Shown here piece after piece: positions 9,346 to 62,720 of a stretch of 64,000 nt of DNA (positions are counted from its first letter, which is position 1; every line of letters starts with the position of its first letter). This DNA is from an uncultured delta proteobacterium (GTDB lineage Bacteria; Desulfobacterota; Syntrophobacteria; BM002): NCBI GenBank assembly GCA_963712115.1, contig CAVQGX010000042.1:32001-96000 (forward strand). The letters are read 5' to 3'. The translations under genes were made by a program, and so were the position numbers. A model generated the notes under the pieces. That model saw nothing but the letters and a program-made list of their open reading frames with translations, did no database searches and was not told the origin of the DNA.

Positions 9346-9441
9346 GATACTGGATGCTGGGTGCTGGATACTAGATATTAGATGAACATATGAGTTCTGT
9401 AATAAAAATCTAGCATCCAGGATCTAGTATCAAGAATCTAG
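9346..9441. repeat. Inverted pair of heptamer tandem arms (GATRCTG / CTAGYAT) between ntrY and ntrX
   Basis: gatactg gatgctg ggtgctg gatacta gatatta ... aatctag catccag gatctag tatcaag aatctag. Confidence 0.85.
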
Positions 9442-9458
9442 TGAAGAGTCGTTTAACT

Positions 9459-10829
9459 ATGACCAGGACCATAATGATAGTAGATGATGAGCCGAGCATC
9501 CGCACATCCTTGGAGGGTGTATTGGAAGACGAGGGTTTCAAGGTTGTCTGCGCAAGCGATGGTCACGAAGCCTTGAAGACCATGGAAGAGGATATGCCGG
9601 ACCTGGTTCTACTGGATATCTGGATGCCCGGGATTGATGGGATTGAGACTCTGAAACGGATGCGGGAACTCCACCCTGCCCTCCAGGTTATTATGATCTC
9701 TGGCCACGGGACCATAGAGACGGCTGTAAATGCCACCAAGCTGGGGGCTTTCGATTTTATTGAAAAACCCCTTTCTTTGGAGAAAACCTTAGTCACCATT
9801 CAGAATGCTCTTAATTTTCGTCGGCTTCGAGATGAAAATATTATCCTGCGCCAAAAGGCGAGAGGGAAGCACAAGATCACCGGGGAAAGTGCAGTTATAA
9901 AACAACTTCGAGAAACAATTGAGCGCGTGGCTCCAACTCAGGCCACAGTCCTAATCACCGGCGAGAACGGAACCGGCAAGGAACTGGTAGCTCGCGCCAT
10001 CCATCATTTCAGCCCCAGAAATACTCGTCCTTTGGTTGAGGTTAACTGTGCTGCCATCCCTGAAGAACTTATCGAGAGCGAGCTATTTGGGCACGAGAAG
10101 GGCGCATTCACCGGAGCCAATGAACGGCGCCGCGGACGCTTTGACCTTGCAAATAACGGCACCCTCTTTTTGGATGAAATCGGTGACATGAGCCTGAAAA
10201 CCCAGGCTAAAATTTTACGGATTCTGGAGGAGCAGCGCTTCGAAAGAGTGGGCGGCAACAAAATTATCCAGGTTGACGTCCGTATTATTGCGGCCACCAA
10301 CAAAGATTTGAAGCGGGAGATCGACGAAGGCTGGTTCAGGGAGGATCTTTACTATCGATTGAACGTAATTCCTGTCTTCGTTCCGCCGCTGAGGGAACGA
10401 AAAGAAGACATCCCGCTATTGGTGGAAGATTTCGTGGTAGAATTCGCCCAGGAGGGCAAGTCGACCAGAAAGACTTTTGCCGAAGAAGTTATCCCTGTGT
10501 TGCAGAATTATCCCTGGCCAGGCAATGTGAGAGAACTCAAAAATTTCGTCGAGCGCTTGGCAATATTAGTCCCCGAGGAGGTTATCGAGCTTAGCCATAT
10601 ACCAGCCTCTTTCCACCAGTGCTTTGAAGAGGTCAGCCCAAGTACCGCTATGGAGCAAGCCAACTTCAAAACAGCCAAAGTTCAGTTCGAAAAAGACTAC
10701 TTGCGCAGGAAACTGGAGGAACACGATTGGAACATCTCAAAGACCGCAGGTGCCATCGGCATCGAGAGGAGCCATTTACACCGTAAACTCAAAGCCTACG
10801 GCGTTTCATCAGAGAAATCCAAGGAATAA
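9459..10829 (+). CDS. ntrX: NtrX-like sigma-54-dependent response regulator
   Basis: Receiver domain (LLDIWMP), GENGTGKE, ESELFGHEKGAFTGA, C-terminal HTH; ATG 9459 preferred over GTG 9441. Confidence 0.92.
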   Translation: MTRTIMIVDDEPSIRTSLEGVLEDEGFKVVCASDGHEALKTMEEDMPDLVLLDIWMPGIDGIETLKRMRELHPALQVIMISGHGTIETAVNATKLGAFDFIEKPLSLEKTLVTIQNALNFRRLRDENIILRQKARGKHKITGESAVIKQLRETIERVAPTQATVLITGENGTGKELVARAIHHFSPRNTRPLVEVNCAAIPEELIESELFGHEKGAFTGANERRRGRFDLANNGTLFLDEIGDMSLKTQAKILRILEEQRFERVGGNKIIQVDVRIIAATNKDLKREIDEGWFREDLYYRLNVIPVFVPPLRERKEDIPLLVEDFVVEFAQEGKSTRKTFAEEVIPVLQNYPWPGNVRELKNFVERLAILVPEEVIELSHIPASFHQCFEEVSPSTAMEQANFKTAKVQFEKDYLRRKLEEHDWNISKTAGAIGIERSHLHRKLKAYGVSSEKSKE

Positions 10830-10843
10830 AGCCACCAAAAGTT

Positions 10844-11007
10844 AAATCCTAATATCTAATTTCTAAATCCTAAACAATTTCCAAATGCGCCAAATTCAAA
10901 TGAGAAAAACGAATTGACCCATTAATATGCATACGTCATTGGTTTTGAACATTTGGAAATTTGGATTTCGTATTTGTTTCGTGCTTCGAGCTTAGGATTT
11001 GGGATTT
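10844..11007. repeat. Family-A ~165-bp element with ~65-bp inverted AAATYCK-type heptamer arms (copy 1)
   Basis: aaatcctaatatctaatttctaaatcctaaacaatttccaaat... / ...tttgaacatttggaaatttggatttcgtatttgtttcgtgcttcgagcttaggatttgggattt; related copies at 12567, 26577, 46792, 51499. Confidence 0.85.
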
Positions 11008-11026
11008 TGATTCTTTAGAATCAGCC

Positions 11027-12394
11027 TTACCGAAACCTCTTCTTCTCCTCCTCGATAACATCCACGAGCTCGTACATGATTTCCGGCAGCTTCATGCTGA
11101 CCCTGTCCCAGGAAACGGTCTGGGGCGTTTCGTAGAGTTGATCCCTCAGCTTTAGTCCGGCTTGGTCAATGGCGCGAGCAAGGCCACTTTTCATGAAAGG
11201 TTCAAACTCTTCATTGGCTGTGACGAAGCTCAAAAAACGGTCACTCAAACGGTAGGGTGTAATCAGCAGATCGCCAGCAAAGAGAATAGCATCCTTGAAG
11301 ACTGTGCGCACTGCATTCTCTTCTTCATTGCGATCGTATCGAAGCCCTGCAAAGGCAGCGTTGTCTGCGTACATCTTGATCAGGTGATCGGCCACATCCA
11401 AATAAGTAATGGTGAGGTCCCGGATGAAGTGATCGGAAATCTCCAATCCTTCTTCAATGACCAAAGCGCTCAGAAGGGTAGTGACGATGTCAACCCCCAT
11501 CTTGTGGATTCCACGACTACCATCCTCCTCCGATATTGGCTGGTGTTTGTGATCATAGGCGCCACCGAGGACCTCCACCTGGGCAATGGTGTTGGCCTTG
11601 CGGTAAACCTCGATAAGGGTAAAGATTTCTACTCCCCAGTTGGTAGCGAAGTGCATTCTGCGCAGCAAGCTGTTTTCGAAGGCAACCTCGCCCGACAGTT
11701 GATAGTGGAAATTTAAGAGAAAATCCACAATCCTGAGGACCCTGTCCTCTTGCGTATCGGTGAACTTGCGCTTGAGTGCAATAAGAAGAGGGTCTAGGAG
11801 TAACCTCTTGGCCCGACCATAAAGTTGGTCCTCCTTAAGCCGCGCATAATATGCCTTTGAAAACTGATAGTTTAAGACCACTACAGGAAAAAAAAGCCGG
11901 TCGATCATCTTCCGCTCAAAGGTCCTGATATCAGCATCAACCACACCAATGCACTCGGCGCCCAAAGCCAGAGCTATACCGAAAGAGAGGAACATGTTCC
12001 TCCCCTTGCCCGGCTCTTCCAGTCGGAAACCCGCCTCTGAGAGTTTTTTGTAGATTGAAGCGAACCCTGCCCCGTTGTTGTGTTGAATGAGAAAGTTATT
12101 CAATCCCTTGGATTTCAGGATATCAGCCAGTTCGAGTGCTTCTTCGTCGCTGGCACTATCCAGGCCAAAAATAATATGAGAGAGATACTCCACTGCTGTC
12201 AGCTGTTCGACAATGTTGCCGAACACCGGGCGGTTTTCTTCCTCGGTGAATTCAGTTGCCAGGAGAGGCACTACGAGCACGGCCTTTTTCCACTTGGAGT
12301 GGAAGAGAAGCTTTTCATCCATCTCATCCGGCTGGGAACCTAGGAGATGAAAGGTGGTGATTTTCGTGTGCTTTTGGGCAAAAAAAGACATCAA
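11027..12394 (-). CDS. gpgS: Glucosyl-3-phosphoglycerate synthase-like glycosyltransferase
   Basis: PGKGRN, VDADI, YQLSGE, NWGVEI, YDHKHQ motifs of the GpgS/MpgS family. Confidence 0.72.
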   Translation of the reverse strand: MMSFFAQKHTKITTFHLLGSQPDEMDEKLLFHSKWKKAVLVVPLLATEFTEEENRPVFGNIVEQLTAVEYLSHIIFGLDSASDEEALELADILKSKGLNNFLIQHNNGAGFASIYKKLSEAGFRLEEPGKGRNMFLSFGIALALGAECIGVVDADIRTFERKMIDRLFFPVVVLNYQFSKAYYARLKEDQLYGRAKRLLLDPLLIALKRKFTDTQEDRVLRIVDFLLNFHYQLSGEVAFENSLLRRMHFATNWGVEIFTLIEVYRKANTIAQVEVLGGAYDHKHQPISEEDGSRGIHKMGVDIVTTLLSALVIEEGLEISDHFIRDLTITYLDVADHLIKMYADNAAFAGLRYDRNEEENAVRTVFKDAILFAGDLLITPYRLSDRFLSFVTANEEFEPFMKSGLARAIDQAGLKLRDQLYETPQTVSWDRVSMKLPEIMYELVDVIEEEKKRFR

Positions 12395-12494
12395 TCTTCC
12401 CTCTGGATAAGAACTTTATGGAGAACCTCTGGGGACATGCTTTTATTAGATAACCTTACTAAATTAATTGCCGACATACAAGGGAATAGGCGTA

Positions 12495-12964
12495 ATTGGG
12501 AATTCAGGAATTAAAGAATTGAGGGATTGAGGGATTTAAGATTTTAGATCGCAGATTGAAGCATGGAAATTACAAATCACAACACCCAAATAACAAATGG
12601 TTCGACAAGCTCACCACCCTGAGCCAAGTCGAAGGGCAAATAACAATGACCGAAATTCAAAATCCCAAACCTTCACATCATCTTAAAAAAAGAAAATTCC
12701 AAATATGTTTGGGTCATTGATCACTTGCCCTGTGGAATGCCACCTGTTGGCGGCCCTCCTCCAGAGGATTCCACAGGGTGAAAATTTGAGATTTATTTGT
12801 AATTTGGTGCTTGGGATTTGGGATTTTGGCTCGAGGATTTCGGATTGCGGATTTGAGATCACACATCCCACATCTCACATCTCAAATTTTAGGCATTTTA
12901 GTTCATTTTAGTTCACTTTAGACATTTAGAGCTCTCTATGCCCTCTGCTCTATGCTCTATGCTA
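12495..12964. repeat. Compound repeat block: 8-mer, several 7-mer and 9-mer tracts, one family-A-like element, two inserted hairpins
   Basis: ggaattca/ggaattaa/gggattga; aaatcacaa...tgggatttt; cacatcc/cacatct; tttaggcat/tttagttca x4; ctatgct x4 running into the stop codon at 12962. Confidence 0.85.
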
Positions 12965-14224: not shown

Positions 14225-14234
14225 ATCAGCCGTT

Positions 14235-16678: not shown

Positions 16679-16695
16679 CAGTTACCTTATAATAA

Positions 16696-16787: not shown

Positions 16788-16875
16788 TTGGAGTGATGGA
16801 GTATTGGAGTGTTGCAAATATTTTTCGAGAATCAGAGTGCATTAATCCCATTACTCCAGTACTCCACTACTCCAT
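16788..16875. repeat. Inverted pair of octamer arms (TGGAGTRT / AYACTCCA)
   Basis: ttggagtgatggagtattggagtgttg ... ccattactccagtactccactactcca. Confidence 0.85.
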
Positions 16876-19345: not shown

Positions 19346-19544
19346 GTCCGTGGTCCGTAGTCCGTTGCACCTCACTGCGTTCGCCGTAAAGCGAAGAGCG
19401 CCAAGCGCATAGGGTTAAAGCGAGAAAGGGCCAAGGCGAGATAGGAAAGAGAACGACTTTTCTTGCTTTTCCCGCTTTTCTCGCCCATACACGCTCTGCG
19501 CTATGCGAGTTTAAGCAACGGACTACAGACGACGGACCACGGAC
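19346..19544. repeat. Nested inverted heptamer arms (outer GTCCGTN/NACGGAC, inner GCGCATA/TATGCGC)
   Basis: gtccgtg gtccgta gtccgtt ... gcaacggactacagacgacggaccacggac, enclosing gcgccaagcgcatag ... cgctctgcgctatgcg. Confidence 0.85.
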
Positions 19545-20370: not shown

Positions 20371-20414
20371 TTAATTTTAGGCATTTTAGACACTTTAGGC
20401 ACTTTAGCTCACTT
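20371..20414. repeat. Four-unit nonamer tract (TTTAGRCAY) inside the nuo operon
   Basis: tttaggcat tttagacac tttaggcac tttagctca; same module near 12886, 37574 (inverted) and 62682. Confidence 0.85.
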
Positions 20415-26576: not shown

Positions 26577-26734
26577 AAATCCGAATATCGAATTTCGAAA
26601 TCCCAAACAAATTCAAATTTCAAAATCCAAATGACCAAAACTTTAGTCGAGTCTCTTGGGCTATTTTCCTTTTGAACATTGGAAAATTAGGATTTTGAAT
26701 TTGTTTAGTGCTTCGTGCTTCGGATTTAGAATTT
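26577..26734. repeat. Family-A inverted heptamer-arm element between nuoH and nuoI
   Basis: Right arm 26670-26734 matches the reverse complement of 46792-46856 at 60/65 nt (hand count). Confidence 0.9.
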
Positions 26735-30510: not shown

Positions 30511-30606
30511 ATTTAAGATTGAAGATTGCAGAATTCTAATTTTTAAATCTGTATTTTATTACCATAAATCCTAAATCCGAGATCCTAAATCCGAAATCCG
30601 AAATCG
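30511..30606. repeat. Inverted heptamer arms (AGATTKN / AAATCCK)
   Basis: atttaag attgaag attgcag ... aaatcct aaatccg agatcct aaatccg aaatccg aaatcg. Confidence 0.8.
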
Positions 30607-31255: not shown

Positions 31256-34200
31256 ATGAAGGAGAAGATTCGACTAACCATCAACGGGCAGGAATTTGAG
31301 GCCGAAGCGGGCAACACCATTTTGCAGGTGGCCAGGCAAAAAGACATCCATATTCCAACACTTTGCTTCAACGAGGTTCTTAGACCTATCGAGAGCTGTC
31401 GACTCTGCGTCGTTCGAGTGGAGGGAGAGGAACACCTTCAGGCCTCCTGCAGCACCGAAATCCAAGAAGGCATGGTGATTACTACCGATTCTGATGAAAT
31501 TCATCAAATCCGTAAGCTCATGCTCGAACTCCTCCTCAAGGAACACTACGGTGACTGTGTGGCCCCTTGCCAGCTAACCTGTCCGGCCGGAATAGATATT
31601 CAGGGCTACATTGCCCTCATTGCCCAGGGACAGTACATCGAGGCTTTAAAGCTTATTCGAGAGCGTCTCCCCATGCCCCTTACCATAGGTCGGGTCTGCC
31701 CTCACTTCTGCGAGTACAAGTGCAATCGGAACCTGGTGGAAGAACCCATCAATATCAACCACCTCAAGCGGTTTGTCGCCGACTATGAGATGCACTCAGG
31801 TAAACGTAACCCGCCGCCTCTGTCAGAACTCTCCGGCCGTAAAGTGGCCATCATAGGCGGTGGACCTGCCGGCCTTTCGGCAGCCTATTATCTCCGTAGG
31901 CTGGGGCACGGCAGCACCATCTTTGACGCCATGCCTCATCTCGGCGGCATGCTCCGCTACGGCATTCCTGAATACCGTTTACCCAAAAAAATCCTCGACT
32001 GGGAAATTGACGGAATTCTCGAGTTGGGCAACATAGAGGTCAAATTGGGAGTCAAATGGGGAGAAGACTTCAGCATAGAATCCCTCAGGCAGGAAGGGTA
32101 CGACGCCTTCTTTCTTGCCATCGGCGCTTGGGATACACGAAAATTAGGCGTAGTGGGAGAAGACCTCCAAGGTGTCTGGTCTGGGGTGGACTTCCTTGTT
32201 GATCTTGCTCTCGGCAAGCCGATTCAGATTGGCAAGAACCTTGCCATAATCGGCGGTGGGAACGTTGCCATCGATGCAGCCCGCAACAGCGTGCGCATGG
32301 GCGCAGATACTGTAACCATTATTTACCGGCGTTCGCGGGAAGAGATGCCCGCCAGTCCCGAAGAAATTCATGGTGCTGAAGAAGAGGGAGTCCAGTTCCA
32401 CTTCTTGGCTGCGCCGGTCCGGCTCTTTGGCAGTAACGGCAAGGTTGACAAACTTGAGTATATCAAAATGGAACTCGGCGAGCCGGACGCCAGCGGCAGG
32501 CGTCGACCCGTACCCGTCGAGGGCTCAGAGACCCTAATTCCAGTGGATATGGTGATTGCAGCCATTGGGCAATTCCCTGATCTTTCTCCGGTGGAATCCG
32601 ACAAAGGAGTTGAAGGAATTCCTACCACTCGCTGGAATACATTCGGCGCTGATTCTGACAGCTTGTATACCGGTTTAGAGGGCGTATTCACCGGGGGCGA
32701 TGTCTATCGCGGCCCTGAGACCGTGGTTGGAGCCTTGGCTGATGGCCGCAAGGCGGCAATGGCCATACACCTTTATTTGCGCGAGAAAGAAGTGCATGGC
32801 CCGCCCAGGCCCTTCAATATCTTAAAGGGTGATCTTGAAAATATCGAGAAGGAACAGTTTACCACCAGGGTTACTTCAGCCCCTCGCGAACTCATGCCTG
32901 AACTGGAGCCGAGTGTACGGATCAAAAACTATGAGCAAATCGAGTTGGGTCTTCCCGAGGAGGGCGCGCGCAGGGAGGCGGAGCGCTGTCTCTCCTGTGG
33001 CTGCATGGATGCCTTTGACTGCAGACTGCGGAAATTTGCCTTTGATTTCGGCGTGGAAACCACTACCAGGGTCCGGCCACAAATATCCCTCCATGAGGTA
33101 TCGCGTCGCGACGTGCACCAATTCATCACCTTGGACCCCAACAAGTGCATACGCTGTAAGCAGTGCCATGAGGCCTGTACTTTCTTTCAATGCTCAGATG
33201 CCATCGACTTCGAGGACACTCCCAGTTTAAACTCCAATTGCGTTTTTTGTGGTCTTTGTGTTGATTTGTGTCCCACCGGGGCGTTAGAGGAGCGTATAAG
33301 CGGCAAACCCGGTCCATTTCACTTCAAGCAAAAGGAGACTATTTGTCCTCACTGCGGCTGTGGCTGCAACCTTCTGCTAAACGTAAAGAGCGACAAGCTG
33401 TTCACTGTGACCACTCGAAATACCGCCCCACCCAGCTATGGTTACACCTGCCGTCAGGGTCGCTTTGATAGCTTTGATTATCTCTCCAAGGGCAAACGGC
33501 TCCAGACCCCGCTGCTCAAGAAAGGCGGTAAATTAGTTGAGGCCAGCTGGGAGGAGGCCCTGGAGCGAGTAGTCTCTGAGTTTAAACGACTAAAGGAGGA
33601 GCACGGCCCCGTTGGGCTGGCTGCCATAGGTTCCCCGCGAGCCACTAATGAGGCCAATTACCTGCTTCAAAAGATTTTTCGCAACCAGTTGGAGTGTAAC
33701 AATTTGGATTACCCGGGAGGCCAGTCTCATCGGGCCACTTTGTCAACCCTTTCGCAGGCTCTGGGCAAGTCCGCCATGACCAATTCGTTGAGCGAAATTG
33801 AAAAGGCGGAGGTTATCTTCGCTCTGGGCAATGCAATCGAAGAAAACAATCCTGTAGTGGCCACTGCCATACGGCGAGCCAGCCGCACCCACGCTCGCCG
33901 TCTCATAACTCTAAGCTCCTCAGAAGTGGCTCTGGGTAAGTTTGCCGAACCTGCCCTGGTTGTTCCCAAGGAATACATGGCTGATTTCCTTCAAAGCCTG
34001 GTCAAACTTATGCTTGAACTTAAGCTCTACGATAAAGATTTCGTAGCTGCTCATACCAAGGGAATAGGGGATCTGGAAAAGTCCCTGGCATCTTTCGATC
34101 ATCTAGATACGTTAGCCAAACTTAAGATGCTACCGAGCACTTTCGAAGAGCTGGCCCGAACCCTTGCAAATACTTCTTCCCTTGCCATAGTCTACTCAGA

Positions 34201-35241: not shown

Positions 35242-35372
35242 ATGGAGTGTTGGAGTACTGGAGTATTGGGACAGCTCAATTGCGGATTTTGGAATGCGGA
35301 TTGCGGAAGTTTAGTTCAGTGTTTGATTTGGTTCTTGTTGTTTTCAATCCGAAATCCGAAATCTGAAATCTG
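35242..35372. repeat. Octamer tract plus inverted heptamer arms between attenuator and leuA
   Basis: tggagtgt tggagtac tggagtat; attgcgg attttgg aatgcgg attgcgg ... caatccg aaatccg aaatctg aaatctg. Confidence 0.85.
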
Positions 35373-37553: not shown

Positions 37554-37573
37554 TCTTCTATCCCATTTATCTT

Positions 37574-37746
37574 AAATGTCTAAAGTGTCTAAAGTGAGCT
37601 AAAATGCCTAAAATTAAGGTAATTGGTAATGGGTTATAGGTTATGGGTCGTTAAAATCGTTCAAGTCGTTCAAATCGTTGAAGCCATAGAAACCGCTGAG
37701 CTTCTGCAAATTCGCAATTCGAAATTACTTCCCTATGCTCTATGCC
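37574..37746. repeat. Stacked 9-mer/7-mer/9-mer composite (inverted relative of 62609-62720) plus further heptamer tracts
   Basis: aaatgtcta aagtgtcta aagtgagcta aaatgccta; ggtaatt ggtaatg ggttata ggttatg; gtcgttaaa atcgttcaa gtcgttcaa atcgttgaa. Confidence 0.9.
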
Positions 37747-39027: not shown

Positions 39028-39143
39028 TCATAAAGCACACCAAGAGCACAAAGAAAAACAATCATATCTTCATATTTACAAATATCATTATCTACTTTGA
39101 TTTCCTTTGTGATCTCTCTGTGATCTCTGTGATCTCTGTGGTT
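39028..39143. repeat. Inverted nonamer arms (CACAAAGAG / CTCTGTGAT)
   Basis: cataaagca caccaagag cacaaagaa ... ctttgtgat ct ctctgtgat ctctgtgat ctctgtggtt. Confidence 0.75.
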
Positions 39144-39362: not shown

Positions 39363-39452
39363 AATTTCAGATTGCTGATTGCAGATTGAGGCTGAATGCA
39401 TTCCTTGTCACTTGGTTCTGAGCTCTTAAATCTGAAATCTGCAATCTCAAAT
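39363..39452. repeat. Inverted heptamer arms (ATTKCAG / CTGMAAT)
   Basis: atttcag attgctg attgcag attgagg ... aaatctg aaatctg caatctc aaatg. Confidence 0.8.
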
Positions 39453-42465: not shown

Positions 42466-42644
42466 GCTCCTCTCCCCGCCGCACCACGATTATTTCCGCT
42501 ATTCTCGCCACCTGGAGGAATTCCACCCTACTTGAGGCCGACCTTATCTTAAGGTTTCAGGTGTCAGGTTTCAGAAATGATATACCCGAACACTGAAACC
42601 TTAGTCATTGTGATTTGTTATTTGGAATTTCAGTCACTTCAACA

Positions 42645-46749: not shown

Positions 46750-46791
46750 AGTACCTCCATGGGAAGAACCGAGGACCAGAGCATAAGTGGA

Positions 46792-46990
46792 AAATTCGAA
46801 ATCCTAAGCACGAAGCACTAAACAAATTCAAAATCCTAATTCTTCAATGCTCAAAACAAAACCAGCCTTAAATACTTGTCTAAAATTTCGGTCATTTGAA
46901 ACCGGGGCCCCGCCCGAAGGGTGGGGACTCCGAAGGAGAATTTTGAAAATTTGAATTTGTTTCGGATTTCGATATTAGATATTCGGATTT
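46792..46990. repeat. Family-A element carrying a 37-bp GC-rich insertion
   Basis: Inverted relative of 26577-26734; insert 46901-46937 flanked by GAA. Confidence 0.88.
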
Positions 46991-47037
46991 AAAACATGGA
47001 GTAATAAGAGCGCTCTTATCGAACTAGGAGATGCGCC

Positions 47038-48411
47038 ATGAAAAAGAGATTAATAGTAATAGGTGGTGGTGCTGGGGGACCCAGTGCTGCCGCCAAAGCT
47101 AAGCGGGTTAACCCAGATCTGGAGGTGACCATACTGGAGGGTGGGGAGCACGTCTCTTTTTCTGCCTGACCAACACCTTATTACATCGGCGATGTAATCA
47201 GGGATGAGGCTAAGCTGATTGCCCGAACACCCGAAGCCTTTGCCAAGTCTGGCATTGAGGTAAAGCTCCATACTAAGGTGGTCACCATACGACCAGAGCA
47301 AAAGCTGGTAGAAATCGCCACCGGTGAAACACTTCCTTTCGACTATCTCATGGTGGCCACTGGTGCAACCCCCCGCTTGCCCTCCGTTCCCGGGCTTGAT
47401 CTTGACGGGATCTTTTGTTTAAGGAACGTTGCTGACGCTATTCGCATAAAAAGCTTCATTCGGCAAAGGAATGCCAGACGAGCGGTGATAGTGGGGGCTG
47501 GCTTAATATCCCTCGAGGTGTGCGAAGCCTTTAGGCGACTTGGACTCGAGACCACAGTTGTTTATCGAAAAGATCTTCCCATGAGGAGACTAGGCGAAGA
47601 CTTCGCTGAGCAGATACTCATTGAACTCGAATCCAATGGCACAAACTTCATGGGTGGCACAGAGTTGGAGAGTTTTGAGCCAACAGACTCCGGAACCATC
47701 ATCGTTCACACTAGTAATGGCGCTTTAGAGTCCGATCTTGTGTTAATTGGCATCGGTGTTGTTCCAGAGGTTTCTCTTGCCTCAGAGGCTGGCATCGAAC
47801 TAGGTCCAACCGGTGCCATTGCGACAAATGAGTATATGCAAACCAACTTCCCCTTTATCTATGCGGCTGGAGATTGTTGCGAGTGCTTTCATCGCATTAG
47901 CCGCAAACCGGTGTATGCTCCCCTTGGAGATATTGCCAACAAACAAGGTCGCATTGCCGGTACTAACATCGGTGGCCAGAACGTTTTGTTTCCCGGAATC
48001 GTGGGATCCATTTGCTTCAAGGTGTTTAATCTGGAAGTTGCCAGCACTGGCCTGACCTTGGAAGAAGCCGAGAAAGCGGGATTTAAAGCAGATTCTTCTA
48101 CTATTCAAGGTGTCTCTAAGGCACACAGCTATCCCGATAGCCGTGAACTCAAAATCCGCTTAGTTGCCGACACTGAAACCGGCCAATTTCTCGGAGCTCA
48201 GTCTGTGGGTGGTGACGGGGTGGTCTCCAGGATCAACGCCTTGGCAGTTGCCTTGACCGGCGGATTGTCCATAGAAGAACTGGCTTATGTTGATCTGGCC
48301 TACGCCCCACCCTTCTCGGGCGCCTGGGATCCCATCCACATAGCAGCACAAAAACTCTGTAAAGTGACGAATACCAAGGAATTGTTGTCATTTGGTAGAT
48401 TTAAGATCTGA
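47038..48411 (+). CDS. Selenocysteine-containing CoA-disulfide reductase / NADH oxidase family flavoprotein (457 aa, Sec44)
   Basis: AGGAG RBS; [14 protein letters not shown]...VSFSA-TGA(47167-47169)-PTPYYIG is in frame with ORF 47278; ATG motif, [22 protein letters not shown]. Confidence 0.88.
47180..47198 (+). promoter_or_regulatory. Bacterial SECIS-like hairpin
   Basis: ATTACATC-GGC-GATGTAAT, 8-bp perfect stem starting 11 nt after the TGA, loop begins with G. Confidence 0.75.
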
Positions 48412-48582: not shown

Positions 48583-49137
48583 TTGAAAGTACTCCTCCAC
48601 ATGTGCTGTGCACCATGTTCCATTTACCCTCTCGAGATCTTGCAGGGTGAAGGAGCACGCGTCTTTGGCTTCTTCTATAACCCCAACATCCATCCCTACC
48701 AGGAATTCCGCCGCCGCCGGCAAGCCGTGGAGCAGTTGGCAGAAAGTCTCGGGTTGGAAATGATCTACCGGGACGAATATGACGTTGTGAGTTTTTTGCG
48801 CCAGGTGGTATTTCGGGAGTCTCAGCGTTGTCCCATTTGCTATGACTTGCGTCTCGATGCGGCTGCGCAGTTGGCAAAAAAAAGCCACCTGGACGGCTTT
48901 ACCAGTACCCTCCTCTACAGTAAGCGTCAAAACCACGAATTAATTTGTCAGTTAGGCGAAGAGATCGGTCGCCGACGGGGGATACCCTTCATCTGCCGAG
49001 ATTTCCGCCAGGGTTGGGAAGAGGGTATAGAAAAATCAAAAGAAATGAATCTATACAGGCAGGAATACTGCGGCTGCATTTATAGCGAGGAGGAAAGATA
49101 TTTAGGAGTCCGTCGTGAGAAATCGCATGGCGCATAG
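48583..49137 (+). CDS. queH: Epoxyqueuosine reductase QueH
   Basis: LLHMCCAPCS, FYNPNIHP..EF..R, RCPICY, YRQEYCGC. Confidence 0.92.
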   Translation: MKVLLHMCCAPCSIYPLEILQGEGARVFGFFYNPNIHPYQEFRRRRQAVEQLAESLGLEMIYRDEYDVVSFLRQVVFRESQRCPICYDLRLDAAAQLAKKSHLDGFTSTLLYSKRQNHELICQLGEEIGRRRGIPFICRDFRQGWEEGIEKSKEMNLYRQEYCGCIYSEEERYLGVRREKSHGA

Positions 49138-49205
49138 CGCAAAGGGCAGAGCGTATTATGGAGATGGTAACTCCACGCTATGCGCTCTGCGCTTGGCGCT
49201 ATGCG
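49124..49205. repeat. Inverted heptamer arms (CGCATAG / CTATGCG) overlapping the queH stop
   Basis: cgcatgg cgcaTAG cgcaaag ggcagag ... cgctatg cgctctg cgcttgg cgctatg. Confidence 0.88.
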
Positions 49206-50090: not shown

Positions 50091-50831
50091 ATGACAGAAA
50101 AGCAATCATCTCAAAAAATCAAAGCTTACGTTCGCGAACTATATGCGAAACTTGCAGCACACGGCAGTGCCAACATCAGTTCTGCGCCTATAGCCTGCGG
50201 AGAAGAACTGGCCCACGCTCTCGGATACGACACCTCATTCTTGCCAATTCCCAAAAAAGCTTGGAGATTATTTGCCGGTTGCGGGAACCCTCTTGAAGAG
50301 ATCAGGCTCGGGCTGCACTGGACAGTTTTGGATTTAGGCTGTGGTGTTGGTATTGATAGCCAGATGGCTGCCCTTTCTATGAAGCCACCTGGTAGGGTGA
50401 TCGGCATGGACATCACTAGAGAACTGCTCCATCATGCCAGAGAGTATTCAAGTTCGCACCCTGTTTGTCACTGGCTGACAGGTGATGGGGAGCAGCTTCC
50501 CTTGCGATCAGAGTGTATCGACTTGGTCACGGCCAACGGGTCTTTTAATCTGATGCCCCATAAAGAACAAGCCCTGACAGAGATACATCGAGTGCTTAAG
50601 CCTGGAGGTTATCTCTCTCTGGCAGACCTCATTGCCGTGGATGAGATGGAGCCAATTGTTGAAGGATTCGAGGAAGCCTGGAGCTGGTGCGTAGCCGGGG
50701 CACTCACTGCCGGCGAATACGACTTTTTAATGCGGTCCACTGGATTTTCCTGGTGGGAGCTAAAAGAAAAGAGTAACTATGGTCCTCTGGCCGCCGCCCA
50801 CCTCCTCGCCCGGAAGGGCGTAAGAGACTAG
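50091..50831 (+). CDS. ArsM-like class I SAM methyltransferase
   Basis: AGCGNP, VLDLGCGVGID, RVLKPGG, WSWCVAGAL. Confidence 0.8.
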   Translation: MTEKQSSQKIKAYVRELYAKLAAHGSANISSAPIACGEELAHALGYDTSFLPIPKKAWRLFAGCGNPLEEIRLGLHWTVLDLGCGVGIDSQMAALSMKPPGRVIGMDITRELLHHAREYSSSHPVCHWLTGDGEQLPLRSECIDLVTANGSFNLMPHKEQALTEIHRVLKPGGYLSLADLIAVDEMEPIVEGFEEAWSWCVAGALTAGEYDFLMRSTGFSWWELKEKSNYGPLAAAHLLARKGVRD

Positions 50832-50903
50832 GAACTAGGGACTAGACACTAAGCACTTTTTAAAATTATTTGGTGCCTAGTGCCTAGTTCTTAGTGTCTA
50901 GTG
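50826..50903. repeat. Inverted heptamer arms (CACTAGG / CCTAGTG) containing both convergent stop codons
   Basis: gacTAGg aactagg gactaga cactaag ... gcctagt gcctagt tcttagt gtCTAgt. Confidence 0.88.
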
Positions 50904-51498: not shown

Positions 51499-51662
51499 AA
51501 ATCCTAAATTCTAAATCCGAAGCACGAAACAAATCCCAAATTCCAATTCTCCAATATCAAAAACATATCTACTCTTTTCAAGAAGAATTGCCCGGCGTTT
51601 TGTTCATTTGGATTTTGGAAATTTGAATTTGTTTAGGATTTCGATATTCGAATTTCGGATTT
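51499..51662. repeat. Family-A inverted heptamer-arm element
   Basis: aaatcctaaattctaaatccgaagcacgaaacaaatcccaaat... / ...tttgaatttgtttaggatttcgatattcgaatttcggattt. Confidence 0.88.
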
Positions 51663-51741: not shown

Positions 51742-52578
51742 CTACGCTACGGTTCGTGCAACAGTCAGGACTACTACCTCCCTGGCCCTTCCAGCCTTTT
51801 TTAATACCCGCACACACTGATTCACCGTTTCTCCTGTGGTCAGCACATCATCCAGAAGGAGGATACCTTTACCCTTAATCTTTTCTGTAACCTTTAGACT
51901 GAAGGCTCCTTTGACGTTCGCTGCCCTTTGGTTGCGGCTTAAACCGATTTGCGGGTCAGTCCAGCGAGTCCGCTTTAAACTGGAATAATCTACGGGTATT
52001 TTCAAAAGAGAACCTAACCGTCTCGCCAGCAAAGATGCCTGGTTAAATCCCCTCTGGCGCAGACGTTTGTAATGGAGAGGAACGGGAACAATCTTATCTA
52101 TCCTGTGCAGCCCGGTTAACTCCTTTCCCGGACCAATCAACATTCTGGCTAAAGGCCTCACCAGAAAAGTCTGCCCCCCATACTTGAAGCGATGGATGAC
52201 CTCTCTGATAAGTCCCTGGTAGAATCCTGTTGCTCGAGCCCGGTCAAAGAGGTGAACGGACCCGAGACAGTCACCACAGAGGTGGCTGGTCGCTGTTTTT
52301 GCGCCGAAAGGAATTCCACAGAGGGGACAATAGGGTTCTGAAATGAGATCCAGAGCAATGAAACAATCCGGGCAAAACGGTTCTGACTTTTCAGCATAGA
52401 AGGCTCGAGAGCAACCCGCACACATTGGTGGATAGAGGAGAAGAATTATCTCTTGTGCTAGTCTGGCGGTGAGAGCTGGTACCCGCCGGGCCCAGCTTTG
52501 CATATGGGCAGTGGCTCTGCGGAGATTTGGTTTGTTTGCCTGCATTTTTACTAGCGAGCGGCAATTCCAACCAGGCAC
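51742..52578 (-). CDS. comF: ComF family protein (double Zn ribbon + PRTase); true start probably 52543 or later
   Basis: YPPMCAGC, CPLCG, VPVPLH..RLRQRGFNQ, LLDDVLTTGET. Confidence 0.9.
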   Translation of the reverse strand: MPGWNCRSLVKMQANKPNLRRATAHMQSWARRVPALTARLAQEIILLLYPPMCAGCSRAFYAEKSEPFCPDCFIALDLISEPYCPLCGIPFGAKTATSHLCGDCLGSVHLFDRARATGFYQGLIREVIHRFKYGGQTFLVRPLARMLIGPGKELTGLHRIDKIVPVPLHYKRLRQRGFNQASLLARRLGSLLKIPVDYSSLKRTRWTDPQIGLSRNQRAANVKGAFSLKVTEKIKGKGILLLDDVLTTGETVNQCVRVLKKAGRAREVVVLTVARTVA

Positions 52579-52705
52579 TAGGCACTAAGCACTAGGCACT
52601 GAAGGGAATTGATCCATTTAACTTGTTCCTCTGGGTAGTTCATAGTGCATACTGCCTAGTGCCTAGTGCGCAGAGCGCTATGCGCTATGCGATTTGCGCT
52701 CTGCG
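52573..52705. repeat. CACTAGG inverted arms plus CTATGCG tract between icd and comF
   Basis: aggcact aggcact aagcact aggcact ... tgcctag tgcctag; cgctatg cgctatg cgatttg cgctctg. Confidence 0.85.
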
Positions 52706-53946: not shown

Positions 53947-54109
53947 GATTTAGCCCTCACTAATTAGGTCATTTGGCCACTAACGTGGCCGTCATTATGC
54001 TCGACTGTCATTTATAGTATCTCATCATATTGCTTTATAATGGAAACTAAGCCCGAATGACTTAATGACATAGCAGCGTAGTGACCCAATGACTGAAGCA
54101 GCCCATGCG

Positions 54110-55015
54110 CTATGCCAGATCTTTCCTTCTTAAAAGAATCGCTCGCCACTCTTCCATTGTCCAGCTATCTACCTCTTTAAAATAATGAGCCTCGAAGCAT
54201 TTGACAACCTCTTCCATCTGTTCGTTCAATATACCCGAAAGCACCAACCACCCCTCGGGTGAAACGCAGCGGGACAGGCTGGCTGCCATTTGCGTTATGA
54301 CTGGCGCAGTTAGGTTGGCGATGACCAAATCGTATCTATCGCCCAATCGATGGAGAGGAATACTACTTACCGACATAATCCCCTCTACCCCATTTCTGAG
54401 CAGGTTCTCCTCCGCCACCTTGAGGGCTTCGGGATCAAGGTCCAGGCCCAAAACTCGTCTAGCCCCTAAACGTGCAGCAGCAATCCCTAAAATACCGCTC
54501 CCTGTGCCAACATCCAAGACAGAAGTGACTGAGTCCATTTTTTCCCTGGAGGACTCACTTAGAATTAGCTCTAGTATTTCAAGGCAAAGAGCCGTGCTGG
54601 GATGTTTGCCGGTTCCAAAGGCTCGTCCAGGATCGATCTCTATCAACACCTGCCCAGGTTTTGGCTCATATGGTTCCCAGGTGGGCTTGATTACAATGTT
54701 TTTGCCGATAATCAATGGTTTGAAGAATGACTTCCAGGTCTCAGACCAATCTTCACCTGGCAGATCTTTTTGCGCCACCCTTAGTTCCGGCAGGTTCGGA
54801 TACAACTGCTGTAGATCTCGGTAATAATGGGTTAACTGCTGGAGGCAGACCTGCGCTTCCTGACCCTCGTAGCAGTAAGCCGTGACCCATTCTCCTTCGA
54901 GTTGAACACCCCGCTTCGTTTGTTCCACCAGAAAGTTGGCTACTACCTCTTGCACGGCCGCTGGGCACCAAACAGACAGGCTAACCCATTTCCTTTCGCA
55001 TTTCTCATTTCGCAT
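54110..55015 (-). CDS. prmA: Ribosomal protein L11 methyltransferase
   Basis: EDWSETWK, IDPGRAFGTG.HPST, VLDVGTGSGIL, LSGI. Confidence 0.93.
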   Translation of the reverse strand: MRNEKCERKWVSLSVWCPAAVQEVVANFLVEQTKRGVQLEGEWVTAYCYEGQEAQVCLQQLTHYYRDLQQLYPNLPELRVAQKDLPGEDWSETWKSFFKPLIIGKNIVIKPTWEPYEPKPGQVLIEIDPGRAFGTGKHPSTALCLEILELILSESSREKMDSVTSVLDVGTGSGILGIAAARLGARRVLGLDLDPEALKVAEENLLRNGVEGIMSVSSIPLHRLGDRYDLVIANLTAPVITQMAASLSRCVSPEGWLVLSGILNEQMEEVVKCFEAHYFKEVDSWTMEEWRAILLRRKDLA

Positions 55016-55160
55016 TTTTCATTTTACATTTATCATTTATCATCTGACGTTTCACCTTTCTCATTTTCAACTGTATCAAATTGAAGGATGAGTCATAGCA
55101 CTCAATGTGCAATGATAAATGAGCAATAAGAGATGAGAGACGAGAGATGAGAAATGAAAT
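54987..55160. repeat. Inverted heptamer arms (CATTTYN / NRAAATG) overlapping the prmA start
   Basis: catttct catttcg cattttt catttta catttat catttat ... aaatgag caataag agatgag agacgag agatgag aaatga. Confidence 0.85.
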
Positions 55161-57826: not shown

Positions 57827-57841
57827 GATCTCTCCTCCACT

Positions 57842-58379
57842 TCACTTCCCCTCTTGTAAATCTCTGACTGGGCAGAGCCCGATATGCTTTAAAGTGCCGC
57901 ATCAGGTCAGTATAGGCATATCCCCGGTTAAAGTTAAAAAGTTTAGAGCTTATTGTTCTTACTTTTATTTGTCTATCCTGCAATTTGTAGTCTATGGTCA
58001 TGGGCTCTGATGCCCACACCCAACCGCAACTAAGCCTGATTTCAGGGACTATCTTGACATTTTGGCCACAATCAGTCTCATATCCTTGGTAGTCTTTGTC
58101 ACGGACGTACAGTGTTTGTAGTTCTTCGATGGTGGGCAGCCGCCAGTTGTCGTAGCGAGCGGGTATAAGGTAGGGAAAAGTCCACTTACAATATTTCTCT
58201 GCATCCCGCCAATCTATGTCTCCCTGATTGTCATCTTTGGCCCACATGACTCCCAACTGGTGGTCCGTCACCGTTCCGTCACCGTTATCGGTAAATCGCT
58301 CACCAGCTGAAGCAGAAGAAACGATAACTGCCAGAAAAACTATAAACAAACCGAAGCACGAAGCTCGAAGCCTTAACAT
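57842..58379 (-). CDS. DUF1566 (Lcl C-terminal) exported protein with probable +1 frameshift near 57870
   Basis: RFTDNGDGTVTD..LGVMW, WRLPTIEEL; removing one base gives RALPVRDLQEGK* ending at 57842 instead of a 125-nt overlap with the USP gene. Confidence 0.75.
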
Positions 58380-58448
58380 CTTTCCTCTCCTTGAGAACCA
58401 TCAACACCGCTTGTCAGTTCTTATCAGATTGCGGCTGGATGGAAACAA

Positions 58449-58635
58449 AACCACAGAGAATACAAAGAGCACAAAGAAAATACCGCAAAACGTTTGGTAA
58501 ACAGTAAATGGTGAACAGCAAACGGATCTATTATGCACCTGCTCACCCTTCGCTGTTTTGTTTTTACTGTCTTTTCGCTATGCGCTATGCTCTATGCGCT
58601 TCGCCTCAATTGTGTTCTTCGTGTACTTCGTGGTT
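58449..58635. repeat. Nested inverted arms: outer nonamer, inner heptamer, plus solo CTATGCG tract
   Basis: aaccacagagaatacaaagagcacaaag / ttgtgttcttcgtgtacttcgtggtt; ggtaaacagtaaatggtgaacag / ctgctcacc...tttactg. Confidence 0.85.
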
Positions 58636-58673
58636 AATCACCCCCTCTGGCAAACACCCCTTTAAACCTCGCA

Positions 58674-60746: not shown

Positions 60747-60829
60747 ATCATCACCTAGAGGTTGAAAGGTTGATTTAATTTTTAATAGCAACTTTCTAGA
60801 TGAATCAGGATATTACCTCCCTTTCGAAG

Positions 60830-60906
60830 TGATGGGATAATGGAATATTGGAATGTAGGGCTGAATGGTTTTAGCATTTTCCATCCTTCCAGTATTCCAA
60901 CATTCA
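60830..60906. repeat. Inverted octamer arms (TGGAATRT / AYATTCCA)
   Basis: tgggataa tggaatat tggaatgt ... ccatccttccagtattccaacattca. Confidence 0.8.
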
Positions 60907-60946
60907 TGACTTTAAAGCTGCCCCAAGGTGGGGTTTTTGGCCAGGG

Positions 60947-60977
60947 AAAAAGTCGGCGGCGGGATGTTCCCGCCGCC
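60947..60977 (-). terminator. Hairpin after the TAXI receptor gene (terminator or mRNA-stabilising stem)
   Basis: GGCGGCGGGA-TGT-TCCCGCCGCC with a short U run on the minus strand. Confidence 0.65.
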
Positions 60978-60996
60978 TGTTTGAATGCTTGCTGGT

Positions 60997-61977
60997 TTAC
61001 ATCAAACCTGCCTCTTTGTAATACTTCATGGCACCTGGATGTATGGGTGCCGACATACCTTCGAGCATGTTCTGCTTAGTGAGGTCCTCGTAAGCTGGAT
61101 GCAGCTTCTTGAATTCCTCGAAGTTGTCGAAGACCTCTTTGGTGACGGCATAGACTATCTTATCATCCACCTTAGCCGAGGTGACGAAGGTGGCCTTCAC
61201 TCCGAAGGTCTGCACATCTTCTTTGTTGGTGGCACCTTCATAGAGCTTGATGGGAATGACAGCTTTGGCATAGTAAGGATACTTTGCCAGGAGCTTTTCT
61301 ACGCCGACGATCGGCACGAAGTGGACCTTTCTCCTGCCTGCAGTTGCCTCCTTGATTGCACCGCTGGGATGACCTACTGTGTAGAAGAACGCATCGATGC
61401 GGCCGTCTTGCAGCAATCCGGGGGCCTCAGCTGCCTTGACTCCCTCCGCGGTTAGATCTGTCTCGTAGTTGATCCCTGCATTTTCCAGGGCATCGATGGA
61501 GTTCTGCCGCTGGCCGGAGCCGGGGTTGCCGATGTTTACCCGTTTGCCCTTGAGATCCGCAAGCGTATTGATACCTGCATCATCCGCAGCCACCAGCGTT
61601 ATTGATTCAGGATGTATGGTGAACACGGCACGGAGGTCCTTTTGGGGACCTTTTTCCGCCCATTCCTCCAAGCCGTTGTAAGCCTGGTATTGACGGTCGG
61701 ACTGAACCACGCCGAATTCCAGGTCACCGGCCATAATCGCATTGACGTTAAAGACTGACCCGCCAGTGGATTCCACTGTGCAGCGGATCCCGTAAACCTT
61801 TCTTTTCTGGTTGACGATCCTGGCAATGGCACCGCCTGTTGGATAGTAAACCCCTGTGATACCACCGGTTCCAATGGTGACGAAGGTGGTCTTGGCAACA
61901 ACCGGAGTTGGATTCACCATCATGCCAAGGGCCAAGCAAATGGCCGCAATTATAGTGATTAATCCAATTCTTTTCAT
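60997..61977 (-). CDS. TAXI-family TRAP solute-binding protein
   Basis: Signal peptide, IGTGGITGVYYPTGG, STGGSVFN, VQSD, IGNPGSG, PIHPGA..YY. Confidence 0.94.
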   Translation of the reverse strand: MKRIGLITIIAAICLALGMMVNPTPVVAKTTFVTIGTGGITGVYYPTGGAIARIVNQKRKVYGIRCTVESTGGSVFNVNAIMAGDLEFGVVQSDRQYQAYNGLEEWAEKGPQKDLRAVFTIHPESITLVAADDAGINTLADLKGKRVNIGNPGSGQRQNSIDALENAGINYETDLTAEGVKAAEAPGLLQDGRIDAFFYTVGHPSGAIKEATAGRRKVHFVPIVGVEKLLAKYPYYAKAVIPIKLYEGATNKEDVQTFGVKATFVTSAKVDDKIVYAVTKEVFDNFEEFKKLHPAYEDLTKQNMLEGMSAPIHPGAMKYYKEAGLM

Positions 61978-62464
61978 AGATTTTCTCCTATCTCTTTAAG
62001 GTTGGACGAACAAAACACGATTCGGCCCACGAATTAGCTCTCTCACCTCCTTCCAACATGGCCTTAATCACAAAGCAAATTAGTGATTGATATTCTTGGA
62101 TTGGAATGGTTTCAAAGAACCCCCATTGGGGGGAGGTAGCGTTAAACGCTGCTTTATCTTACCCGCCTCATAGATGATGGTCAAGTACAAAGGGGGGCAT
62201 GACACTCGCACCATCCCTGTGAACTTATTTGAATAGTTGATAATACCCGAGCTTGAGAGGTCAGGAAATCTTTCACTCCTCATCCTTTAGCTCATCTACT
62301 CGTAGGACAACTTAGACAAAATTGCGGTCAATTTCATCAATGGGGCAAACTTTTCTCTGTGCTCTTTACCCTCCTTGTGGTTTAATCTTGGCAAGCGGCT
62401 AGCAGCCAGATCTTGATCATAGCCATTCATGTAGGAGCAATCTCCGCTTGCTATAAAGGGTGGT

Positions 62465-62720
62465 GGATTTCAGATTATAGATTTGCGAAGGCATAGGGCA
62501 TAGAGCATAGAGTAAAGCGAGACGGGATCAGAGGTCAGAGATCAGATGTCTGAGGTCAGGGGTAAAGCTGATATCTGATCTCCGACTTCTGACCTCTGTG
62601 ATGGACAACTTCAACGACTTAAACGATTTGAACGGCTTGAACGATTTGAACGACCCATAATCTATAACCCATTACCTTAACTTTAGGCACTTTAGTTCAC
62701 TTTAGGCATTTTAGACATTT
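62465..62720. repeat. Compound block: GCATAGA tract, inverted AGGTCAG/CTGACCT arms, 9-mer/7-mer/9-mer composite
   Basis: gcatagg gcataga gcataga; agaggtc agagatc ... tctgatc tccgact tctgacc; ttgaacgat-type x5, cccataa-type x3, tttaggcac-type x4. Confidence 0.9.

Follow-up and report, generated by a model that had tools for sequence, protein, structure and literature searches.

Degenerate 7-, 8- and 9-base tandem arrays form multicopy mosaic modules between the genes of an uncultured Syntrophobacteria bacterium

Short-period tandem repeats occupy many spacers of a 64,000-nt stretch of DNA (hereafter the window; G000:C42:32001-96000, that is positions 32,001 to 96,000 of contig CAVQGX010000042.1) from an uncultured delta proteobacterium of the lineage BM002 (assembly GCA_963712115.1, here G000; 4.90 Mb, 70 contigs, 48.9% G+C, 94%-complete). 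We consider it probable that these tracts are genome-wide mosaic repeats composed of degenerate arrays with units of 7, 8 or 9 bases, roughly one array in three being paired, and that they have spread as whole modules by copying and would fold into long imperfect stems when transcribed. The original prediction, made from the letters of the window, had taken them for cargo-less copies or scars of an uncharacterised mobile or RNA-processing element. That interpretation is supported as to copies of element families and the tie to the four-helix-bundle genes of the family TIGR02436, whereas the reading as scars of lost cargo is not supported; our evidence favours mosaic modules that were copied, a TIGR02436 gene being carried by some of them.

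Multicopy modules, their abundance and their pairing

Counting as full-length any copy with at least 90% coverage and at least 80% identity, we found further full-length copies of 121 of the 217 hairpin modules; for 89 modules there are three or more such copies, and for 53 there are ten or more. The module listings show the same order of unit variants together with the same loop at many unlinked loci. One such element reads CAGAGGT-CAGAAGT-CGGAGAT-CAGAGAT / CTTTAACC / CTGACCT-CCGACAT-CTGATCT-CTGACCT, and a second, of the CAGGTTT family, has an A-rich loop. Loops of one family also resemble each other more than loops of different families do, with 59 of 405 same-family pairs above the 99th percentile of different-family pairs, against 6 of 786 different-family pairs. 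The most frequently copied example in the window is a 78-nt hairpin of the CAGAGGT/CTGACCT family (62523..62600; TCAGAGG x5.1 at 62528), with 33 other full-length copies that are up to 98.6% identical. Near-identical copies in dozens indicate that copying, and not slippage alone, is likely to have spread these modules, in line with the earlier statement that the tracts are not slippage microsatellites.

The surroundings of the 78-nt hairpin are conserved as well. One flank is a GCTGCCT heptamer array after GAGTTCT and the other is GTCCAT followed by AATCGTTNA 9-mers, giving a mosaic with the fixed order GCTGCCT array, CAGAGGT hairpin, GTCCAT and 9-mer array. An alignment of 22 mosaic copies is conserved over ~160 nt, with nothing conserved beyond. 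In the window, the plus-strand 9-mer arrays at 62608..62714 (TTGAACGAY x5.2, then TTTAGRCAY x3.8) belong to this fixed mosaic with the hairpin to their left, and 62523-62714 and 37570-37683 are two copies of one mosaic type in opposite orientation. The latter, a composite 9-mer module on the minus strand, has in minus-strand order an TTGAACGAC array, a CATTACC array and a TTTAGA-type array; within it Tandem Repeats Finder (TRF) calls an GTCGTTCAA x4.1 array at 37647. Among 35 mosaic copies that we placed (some duplicated contigs included), those between co-directional genes are oriented 17 times with transcription and 6 times against it. The 9-mer array after the 78-nt hairpin can also be read as a micro-ORF (open reading frame), ATG-GAC-(TTN-AAC-GAY)n for M-D-(L/F-N-D)n. 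At nine loci this frame enters unrelated sequence for 10 to 71 residues and has no common end; we rejected it as a gene.

A composite family of 165-200 nt, with arms made of AAATCCN and GAAGCAC units, has at least 54 copies of at least 100 nt. Two of its members lie in the window, at 46792..46990 and 51499..51662, and both are composite-arm elements of a MITE-like kind (MITE: miniature inverted-repeat transposable element). The second has 9 full-length and 84 partial copies, while the ends of the first coincide with breaks of metagenome contigs.

Genome-wide, TRF yields 3917 non-redundant arrays, of which 2069, 415 and 510 have periods of 7, 8 and 9, compared with 79, 92 and 116 rows in an order-3 Markov copy of the genome; period-7 arrays are thus ~26 times as frequent as in the control. 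Most of the latter (1784 of 2069, 86%) lie mostly outside ORFs, in contrast to the period-9 arrays, 215 of which (out of 510) are fully within ORFs. Arrays occupy 80,867 of 986,009 intergenic bases (8.2%), and about 30% of all spacers hold at least one. The 2994 arrays of periods 7, 8 and 9 are drawn from only 773 canonical units, with 144, 118 and 102 occurrences for the top three; the commonest units are ACTAGGC, ACCTCTG and AAATCCG. Their placement is uneven. Density is 1.53 arrays per kb in divergent spacers, 2.73 in co-directional and 2.89 in convergent ones; in co-directional spacers the fifth nearest the next start is depleted (196 arrays vs ~350 per fifth), and a stop codon is at most 10 nt away for 206 arrays, a start codon for 65.

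In the window, all twelve unit families named in the original prediction are located where it had placed them, by TRF and by inspection of the sequence, although the arrays fall into 22 spacers of our crude gene map and not about 25. Of the operon-internal sites it had listed, those between ntrY and ntrX (9345-9442) and upstream of leuA (35243-35370) stand, and the one between nuoI and nuoH is reduced to a single weak array (26708-26722, x2.1). As had been claimed, NCBIfam gave no match to a transposase, integrase or reverse transcriptase (RT) family for any of the 53 window ORFs.

Arrays of complementary units tend to be neighbours. We compared arrays up to 200 nt apart, calling units related if some rotation brings them to within one mismatch of each other, and shuffled the labels among arrays for the expectation. 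Inverted neighbour pairs number 227 against 52.3 ± 6.6 after shuffling, and direct pairs 25 against 52.7 ± 7.1; complementary-unit arrays therefore adjoin four times as often as under shuffled labels, and the median loop of the inverted pairs is 31 nt. The pairing that had been proposed is thus real, as is also seen with 600 sampled non-coding arrays, 34% of which have an inverted match (score of at least 10) in their own 250-nt flanks and 8% in the flanks of unrelated arrays. It does not extend to most tracts, however. A partner called by TRF exists for only 446 of the 2994 arrays, and of the 49 arrays in window spacers, 25 are matched by an inverted tract (score of at least 10, within 200 nt), which gives 16 pairings in 15 of the 22 array-bearing spacers. 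The unpaired ones include the 9-mer families TTTAGRCAY and TTGAACGAY, TCTCTGTGA and AATTGAGG. The two arms had also been said to contain similar unit numbers, which does not hold, because their copy numbers are uncorrelated (r = 0.08).

The hairpins form strong stems, with a mean folding energy of −0.39 kcal/mol per nt, and the 119-nt ntrY-ntrX spacer folds at −44.8 kcal/mol. Folding z-scores of whole spacers were discarded as too crude.

Turnover between species and the four-helix-bundle genes

The genus of G000 comprises 17 other species genomes (18 genomes in all), and in comparisons with sister species the tracts behave as copies of dispersed elements, present or absent at orthologous sites. 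The filled and empty sites that a mobile element would leave among relatives are indeed seen. The composite element at 51499..51662 is absent from the orthologous site (spacer 51423) in G002, G016, G012 and G007, and a 345-nt block upstream of kdsB, which contains the 62523-62714 mosaic, is wholly absent in G002. The comparison took in 14 window spacers besides ntrY-ntrX, with up to five relatives. Spacers 49138, 55016 and 60792 retain their family, the spacer at 53947 has a different family in each species, and new modules are nested in the loop of an older conserved hairpin at 58380 and, in G012, at 55016. Metagenome contigs, from one RNA run and from one DNA run, show a variant with 10 nt in place of 50818-50897.

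At the ntrY-ntrX spacer, GATRCTN arms with varying unit numbers are found in 10 of 12 genus genomes. The exceptions are one genome with a spacer of 14 nt and one with the right arm only. The flanking genes are ~75% identical in the more distant members of the genus, yet the arms are retained there.

Family abundance differs strongly between species. Counted as matches to three units with at most 3 mismatches, the ACTAGGC family has 5 to 412 matches per genome across the 18 genus genomes and 17 in the single other genus of the family; none was found in the 12 class-mates outside the family that were searched. The exact ACTAGGC 21-mer also occurs in metagenome-assembled genomes labelled Gemmatimonadota, Phycisphaerae, Acidobacteriota, Bacteroidota and cyanobacteria. 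At the loci in Longimicrobiaceae, inverted (ACTAGGC)3 arms stand ~285-300 nt apart, and the ORF lists give only GC-rich frames of ~100 residues. In another genus of the class (G026), a control with the reversed pattern gave 80 forward and 70 reverse matches, so that an abundant heptamer family of its own, built on another unit, is present there.

The original prediction had associated similar tracts in other genomes with genes of the families TIGR02436 and TIGR04256. G000 has 14 matches to the first family and 5 to the second, all of them outside the window. The first link holds in G000, where 8 of the 14 TIGR02436 genes are flanked on either side by arrays no more than 400 nt away, compared with 8.4% of 1586 small ORFs (binomial tail ~5e-6, by our own arithmetic). 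The second does not, since only 1 of the 5 TIGR04256 genes is flanked, which is no enrichment. In all 8 TIGR02436 cassettes the arm pairs are mutually complementary, 5 by the automatic criterion and 3 by eye, and their unit families (GCATAGN, CTGACCT, TTTAGACAY, GGTCATTA) are also families of empty arrays; the cassette on contig C18 has GCATGGA arms. The cassette at C30:124390-124897 shares its arms and outer flank (CTCTGTGAT.GACGA) with the 78-nt hairpin family and has six empty counterparts; the CAGAGGT/CTGACCT family thus occurs both loaded and empty, with an identical outer flank. At a further site, on contig C52, G000 and G005 are loaded within the same GGTCATTA arms, G012 has the left arm only, and G007, G002 and G016 have other hairpin families. 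The 8 cassettes and all window elements lie between protein-coding ORFs and not in helix 25 or 45 of 23S rRNA.

In the region G000:C30:119600-125000, three TIGR02436 genes alternate with ORFs of 179, 118, 200 and 411 aa, and nearly every junction is filled by arrays of differing families. Longer palindromic inserts without tandem units, for example of the types AACCGCAGAATATCGAA…TTCGATATTC…GCGGTT and GTCATTCTGAG…CTCAGAATGAC, lie within heptamer hairpins at the orthologues of the C52 site in G012 (L153) and G007 (L154) and in the G012 spacers orthologous to window spacers 53947 and 55016. The genus thus seems to have small inverted-repeat elements of a second class.

The cassettes raise the question of whether the empty hairpins are arms left after loss of a TIGR02436 gene, or non-autonomous copies dependent on its protein, as the original prediction had it. 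The flanking of 8 of 14 genes, the shared arm families, the six empty counterparts of the C30 cassette and the mixed state of the C52 site all speak for this; even so we regard it as unlikely. A tblastn search found no four-helix-bundle remnants in 11 long loops (best E = 1), and inverted pairs 200-2000 nt apart are not enriched (88 vs 75 ± 8). Only the 400-500-nt bin of their distances stands out, and it consists of the cassettes. For the same reason, cargo of a general kind between distant arms was rejected. The genome has 14 such genes against 227 close pairs and 2994 arrays, and empty hairpins exceed loaded ones by more than 15 to 1. Across the 18 genus genomes the ACTAGGC-family count does not track the TIGR02436 gene count (318 matches and 1 gene in G002, 6 matches and 9 genes in G010). 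The protein encoded at C20:78447, ~65% identical to that of the C30 cassette, is without flanking arrays, and in a strict test seven of the eight cassettes have at most one empty counterpart each.

A broader idea, which we put forward tentatively and think unlikely, is that the hairpins are non-autonomous members of a widespread transposase-less mobile system, the complete form of which would carry an S23p/TIGR02436 gene whose protein is the factor that recognises the periodic arms and so enables copying of the module. Were this true, one system would account for the long-noted heptamer excess of bacterial genomes, for how rRNA intervening sequences with ORFs arose and for what a large orphan protein family does.

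Competing explanations and known repeat systems

A second explanation is that the arrays are plain slippage microsatellites, which arose in place with a preferred 7-nt register and gained inverted partners by local template switching, with no copying at all. Orthologous arrays do differ in unit number, within-unit variation consists mostly of transitions at one or two positions, and two thirds of the arrays are unpaired. Heptamer over-representation in bacterial genomes has been known since Mrazek 2007 and, in the available portions of the two papers that cite that work (PMC4679880, PMC4692102), is attributed to polymerase slippage. Such an origin is nevertheless very unlikely for these tracts. 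Against it stand an identical loop and order of unit variants at up to 33 unlinked loci, the restriction of 2994 arrays to 773 units, the recurrence of modules in a fixed mosaic order and the presence and absence of whole modules at orthologous sites.

Alternatively, the tracts might be paired binding sites on double-stranded DNA for a nucleoid-associated or global regulator, with hairpin potential as a by-product, as proposed for the class 2 and class 3 sites of Geobacter metallireducens in the part available of PMC2700814. The lack of an RNA-strand bias, arms whose complementarity goes no further than the unit consensus, which independent rows of sites would be expected to show, and the GATRCTN consensus kept at one site across a genus with ~75% identical coding DNA all fit this proposal. 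We find it highly improbable, because 773 different units are too many to serve one or few regulators, families swap at one orthologous spacer while the flanking genes are unchanged, the arrays avoid promoter-only spacers, and family abundance differs ~80-fold between sister species.

Mobilisation by a RAYT (repetitive extragenic palindrome-associated tyrosine transposase) or an RT was rejected, as the 94%-complete assembly gave no RVT_1 match and the four Y1 genes are without arrays of these families around them.

Several observations weigh against copied mosaic modules with a role in RNA. About two thirds of the arrays have no inverted partner. Where arms do pair, aligning them in the geometric register gives a complementarity of 78%, and a shift by one unit gives 79%; the right arm matches 15% of the left arm's deviations from its own consensus, compared with 18% when the register is shifted. 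Since complementarity is equal in and out of register, the arms are two independent degenerate rows of complementary consensus, and the register test revealed no compensatory change between them. This test replaced a unit-order shuffle test for mirrored arms, which gave 0 of 186 pairs at p ≤ 0.05 with a null that is biased upward. Of 157 hairpins lying between co-directional genes, 77 fold better as the sense strand and 78 as the antisense strand (Wilcoxon p = 0.87), so that there is no G-U signature of selection on the transcript. As neither strand bias nor compensatory change is seen, a role in RNA can only be suggested. Intrinsic terminators, scored as a GC-rich stem with a T run between 44000 and 63900, number 24 compared with 20.7 in shuffles; the sole terminator-like site inside an array there is at 50872-50884, and the modules are not terminator-like.

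No mobilising enzyme for the modules was found among the RVT_1 and Y1 candidates: the 94%-complete assembly has no RVT_1 match, and none of the four Y1 transposase genes (PF01797) has 7-9-nt arrays of these families within 600 nt. At aligned filled and empty junctions we saw neither a target-site duplication nor sharp ends, the boundaries being blurred by variable array length. Three window hairpins (9345-9442, 54994-55157 and 60832-60899) have no other full-length copy in the genome, and for hairpins of this kind copying is an extrapolation. Our gene calls are crude ORF maps, which cover 80% of the DNA. One "spacer" is partly coding, as the map split a gene of the CoA-disulfide reductase type whose true upstream spacer is 46750-47037. 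Finally, duplicated contigs (C34/C35, C43/C70, C50/C57) raise the copy counts slightly. These pairs, like C48/C67, bear identical stretches that include repeat modules and their flanks, and they are assembly redundancy, in line with the contamination figure of 5.99.

With copied mosaic modules as the preferred explanation, the following course of events may be envisaged. Modules would be inserted by copy-and-paste and then change by unit slippage and point mutation, while further modules would land inside or beside them; the insertions that persist would be those away from promoters and ribosome-binding sites. In operon transcripts, imperfect stems of 25-35 bp might act as RNase III substrates or exonuclease barriers, by analogy with the stem of the intervening sequence (IVS) in Coxiella 23S rRNA, which also has tandem heptamers and is cut by RNase III.

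Among the closest published repeats are the paired sites of G. metallireducens, a related member of the old Deltaproteobacteria. In the part available, Aklujkar et al. 2009 (PMC2700814) describe class 2 (TCTCCGTS[Y] x3, 21 pairs) and class 3 (MTYCTGA x5), which are likewise multicopy intergenic rows of tandem hepta- and nonanucleotides paired on opposite strands at variable distance. Rows of 3-5 units in multicopy opposite-strand pairs are also what we find here, with 227 close inverted pairs and multicopy modules. The unit cores resemble each other by eye only (YCTGA in the CTGAYCT hairpin, CGTCTCCGT in spacers of the relatives). In that same portion of the text they are described as binding sites of unknown regulators, and copying, presence or absence between species and a four-helix-bundle link are not raised.

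In Xanthomonas, inverted GGGAATC heptamer arrays have been reported (Rehm et al. 2015, PMC4692102). From the part of that paper available, they are intergenic and degenerate, mostly of ~4 units, with 70-75 convergent close pairs and stem-loop potential, as here, but they form one G-rich family studied for G-quadruplexes, and multi-family mosaics, conserved loops and cargo genes are not reported there. The element had been called uncharacterised, which is right only in part: paired heptanucleotide sites are in print for G. metallireducens and Xanthomonas, in the portions of those two papers considered here, although their kind is still unexplained.

The C. burnetii 23S rRNA IVS comprises an S23p ORF, terminal inverted repeats and strain-variable tandem heptamers, and its stem is cut by RNase III at the first tandem heptamer (Warrier et al. 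2016, PMC4990558, available in part). An inverted-repeat stem around an ORF of the S23p / PF05635 / TIGR02436 type is likewise found at 8 of the 14 genes of G000, all outside the window. The Coxiella heptamers (GACAGAT) are in the 5′ arm and their number varies between strains, according to the same excerpt. That IVS differs in being single-copy and in lying in helix 45 of the 23S rRNA gene, whereas the window elements are intergenic, mostly empty, multicopy and of many families. A full-text search, subscription journals not covered, found no literature, judged by title or abstract, tying heptamer arrays to the TIGR02436 family.

Heterocystous cyanobacteria reportedly contain heptamers of the short tandemly repeated repetitive (STRR) type, described by Mazel and co-workers in 1990. 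With these, and with the TAACTGA repeats of Beggiatoaceae (PMC4679880, as far as available), the arrays share abundance in intergenic DNA, 2-6 or more units, several families per spacer and a patchy distribution across phyla, and over-represented, mainly intergenic 7-nt arrays are what we observe. STRR sequences have other units and belong to other phyla, and a host with sigma-54 NtrX, 14-subunit Nuo, LpxC and KdsB is not a cyanobacterium. The TAACTGA repeats are direct and stand just upstream of starts (1 inverted pair in 170 sets, in the available text), while arrays here avoid the start-proximal fifth.

Short palindromic extragenic modules in tens to hundreds of copies are also known as repetitive extragenic palindromes (REP), bacterial interspersed mosaic elements (BIME) and REPINs in enterobacteria and Pseudomonas, and as BOX in Streptococcus. 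Like REP, BIME and BOX, the modules form mosaics with a preferred order and are located after genes as well as within operons. A REP is one imperfect palindrome containing a conserved tetranucleotide, and REPs are associated with a RAYT transposase which they themselves flank. The arms in G000 consist of tandem arrays from many families, which do not flank its four Y1 genes. MITEs share the inverted arms and the many copies, but no target-site duplication was seen at aligned junctions and no parent transposon was found.

Elements of the window and wider meaning

The window encodes, among its 53 crude ORFs with NCBIfam names, a sigma-54 NtrX-type regulator and its kinase, the 14-subunit nuo operon, lpxC, kdsB, leuA, icd, TRAP transporters and glycosyltransferases, and sequencing runs that contain this stretch are labelled marine-sediment and estuary. 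The first element is the GATRCTN hairpin of the ntrY-ntrX spacer (9345..9442), with arms at 9345-9376 and 9408-9442 and GATGCTG x3.4 at 9346. It is followed at 10843..11011 by a TAAATCC x4.6 array with an inverted GGATTT tract 117 nt away, which belongs to the AAATCCN composite-arm family and has 62 partial copies. An unpaired AATTGAGG x5.5 array lies at 12494..12536, and four arrays are stacked at 12811..12963 (TTGGGAT x7, ATCTCAC x3.9, ATTTTAGTTC x3.7 and CTCTATG x4.3). The hairpin at 16789..16874 is built of 8-mers, TGGAGTRA / ACTCCA, with TGGAGTGA x2.9 at 16789, and that at 19346..19544 has GTCCGTN / ACGGACN arms (GTCCGTA x2.9 at 19346) around a 152-nt loop that contains an CTTTTCTCG array. 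At 20376..20407 there is a single 9-mer array, TTTAGGCAC x3.6, of the family that forms the arms of two TIGR02436 cassettes elsewhere on the same contig.

Upstream of the nuo operon, ATTGAAG x3.1 and AAATCCG x5.7 arrays occupy 30511..30605, and upstream of leuA an TGGAGTAT x3.4 array is followed by an ATTGCGG / AATCCGA hairpin (35243..35370). After an unpaired TCTCTGTGA x2.9 array at 39115..39140 come two copied hairpins, ATTGCAG / TCTGAAA at 39364..39452 (4 other full-length copies, 85-89% identical) and AGGTTTC / GAAACCT of the CAGGTTT family at 42552..42601 (9 other full-length copies, 92-96% identical).

Two hairpins lie between convergent genes. The one at 49124..49205, CGCATAG (x4.3 at 49124) / CGCTATG, is of a family kept in G002, G005 and G007 and replaced in G016; the other, ACTAGGN / GTGCCTA at 50823..50903 with an ACTAGGA array at 50827, is shorter in G002. 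An AGGCACT / TAGTGCN hairpin and then a GCGCTAT x4.4 array are found at 52570..52705. The CATTTYN (x10.4 at 54994) / AGAGATG hairpin at 54994..55157 is kept in G002, G016 and G007 and has an extra loop insert in G012. In the nested element at 58462..58632, the outer arms CACAAAG / CTTCGTG are retained in G016, G012 and G005, while the inner arrays, GGTAAAC-type and CGCTATG in the window, vary by species. The 8-mer hairpin TGGAATA / TATTCCA at 60832..60899 (ATGGAATA x2.9 at 60832) is kept with other unit numbers in G016 and G012, and a separate terminator-like stem lies beyond it at 60955-60977. A GCATAGR x3.1 array at 62491..62512, just before the 78-nt hairpin, is of the family that forms the arms of a TIGR02436 cassette on contig C59.

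Other features of the stretch and genome were noted alongside. The gene of the CoA-disulfide reductase / NADH-oxidase type (47038-48411, plus strand) is complete only with readthrough of an in-frame TGA at 47167-47169, in the context VSFSA-U-PTPYYIG. The TGA is retained in the G002 and G016 orthologues and likely encodes selenocysteine at the position of the redox-active cysteine. A dispersed repeat of ~230 nt, rich in G+C and with no relation to the heptamer arrays, lies at G000:C18:9195-9422 (L134:2496-2723); it has 99 copies of at least 100 nt in G000, occurs many times in every genus genome searched (77-92% identical) and has no Rfam match. A cmscan search of the window against Rfam (E ≤ 1) gave three chance miRNA/sRNA matches and no Gut-1 motif. 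The region is covered by metatranscriptome and metagenome contigs, but these break at arrays whether the run is of DNA or of RNA, and they are uninformative on RNA ends or expression.

Heptamer repeats have so far been filed as slippage products or as guessed regulator sites, and paired sites are reported in papers on single genomes. Copying of whole modules, ordered mosaics that turn over between sister species, and arms that wrap four-helix-bundle genes change the question, which becomes what copies the modules and whether their stems process operon transcripts. At ~8% of the intergenic DNA, the modules carry practical weight in this lineage for assembly, because contigs break at the arrays, and for gene calling and the reading of operons.

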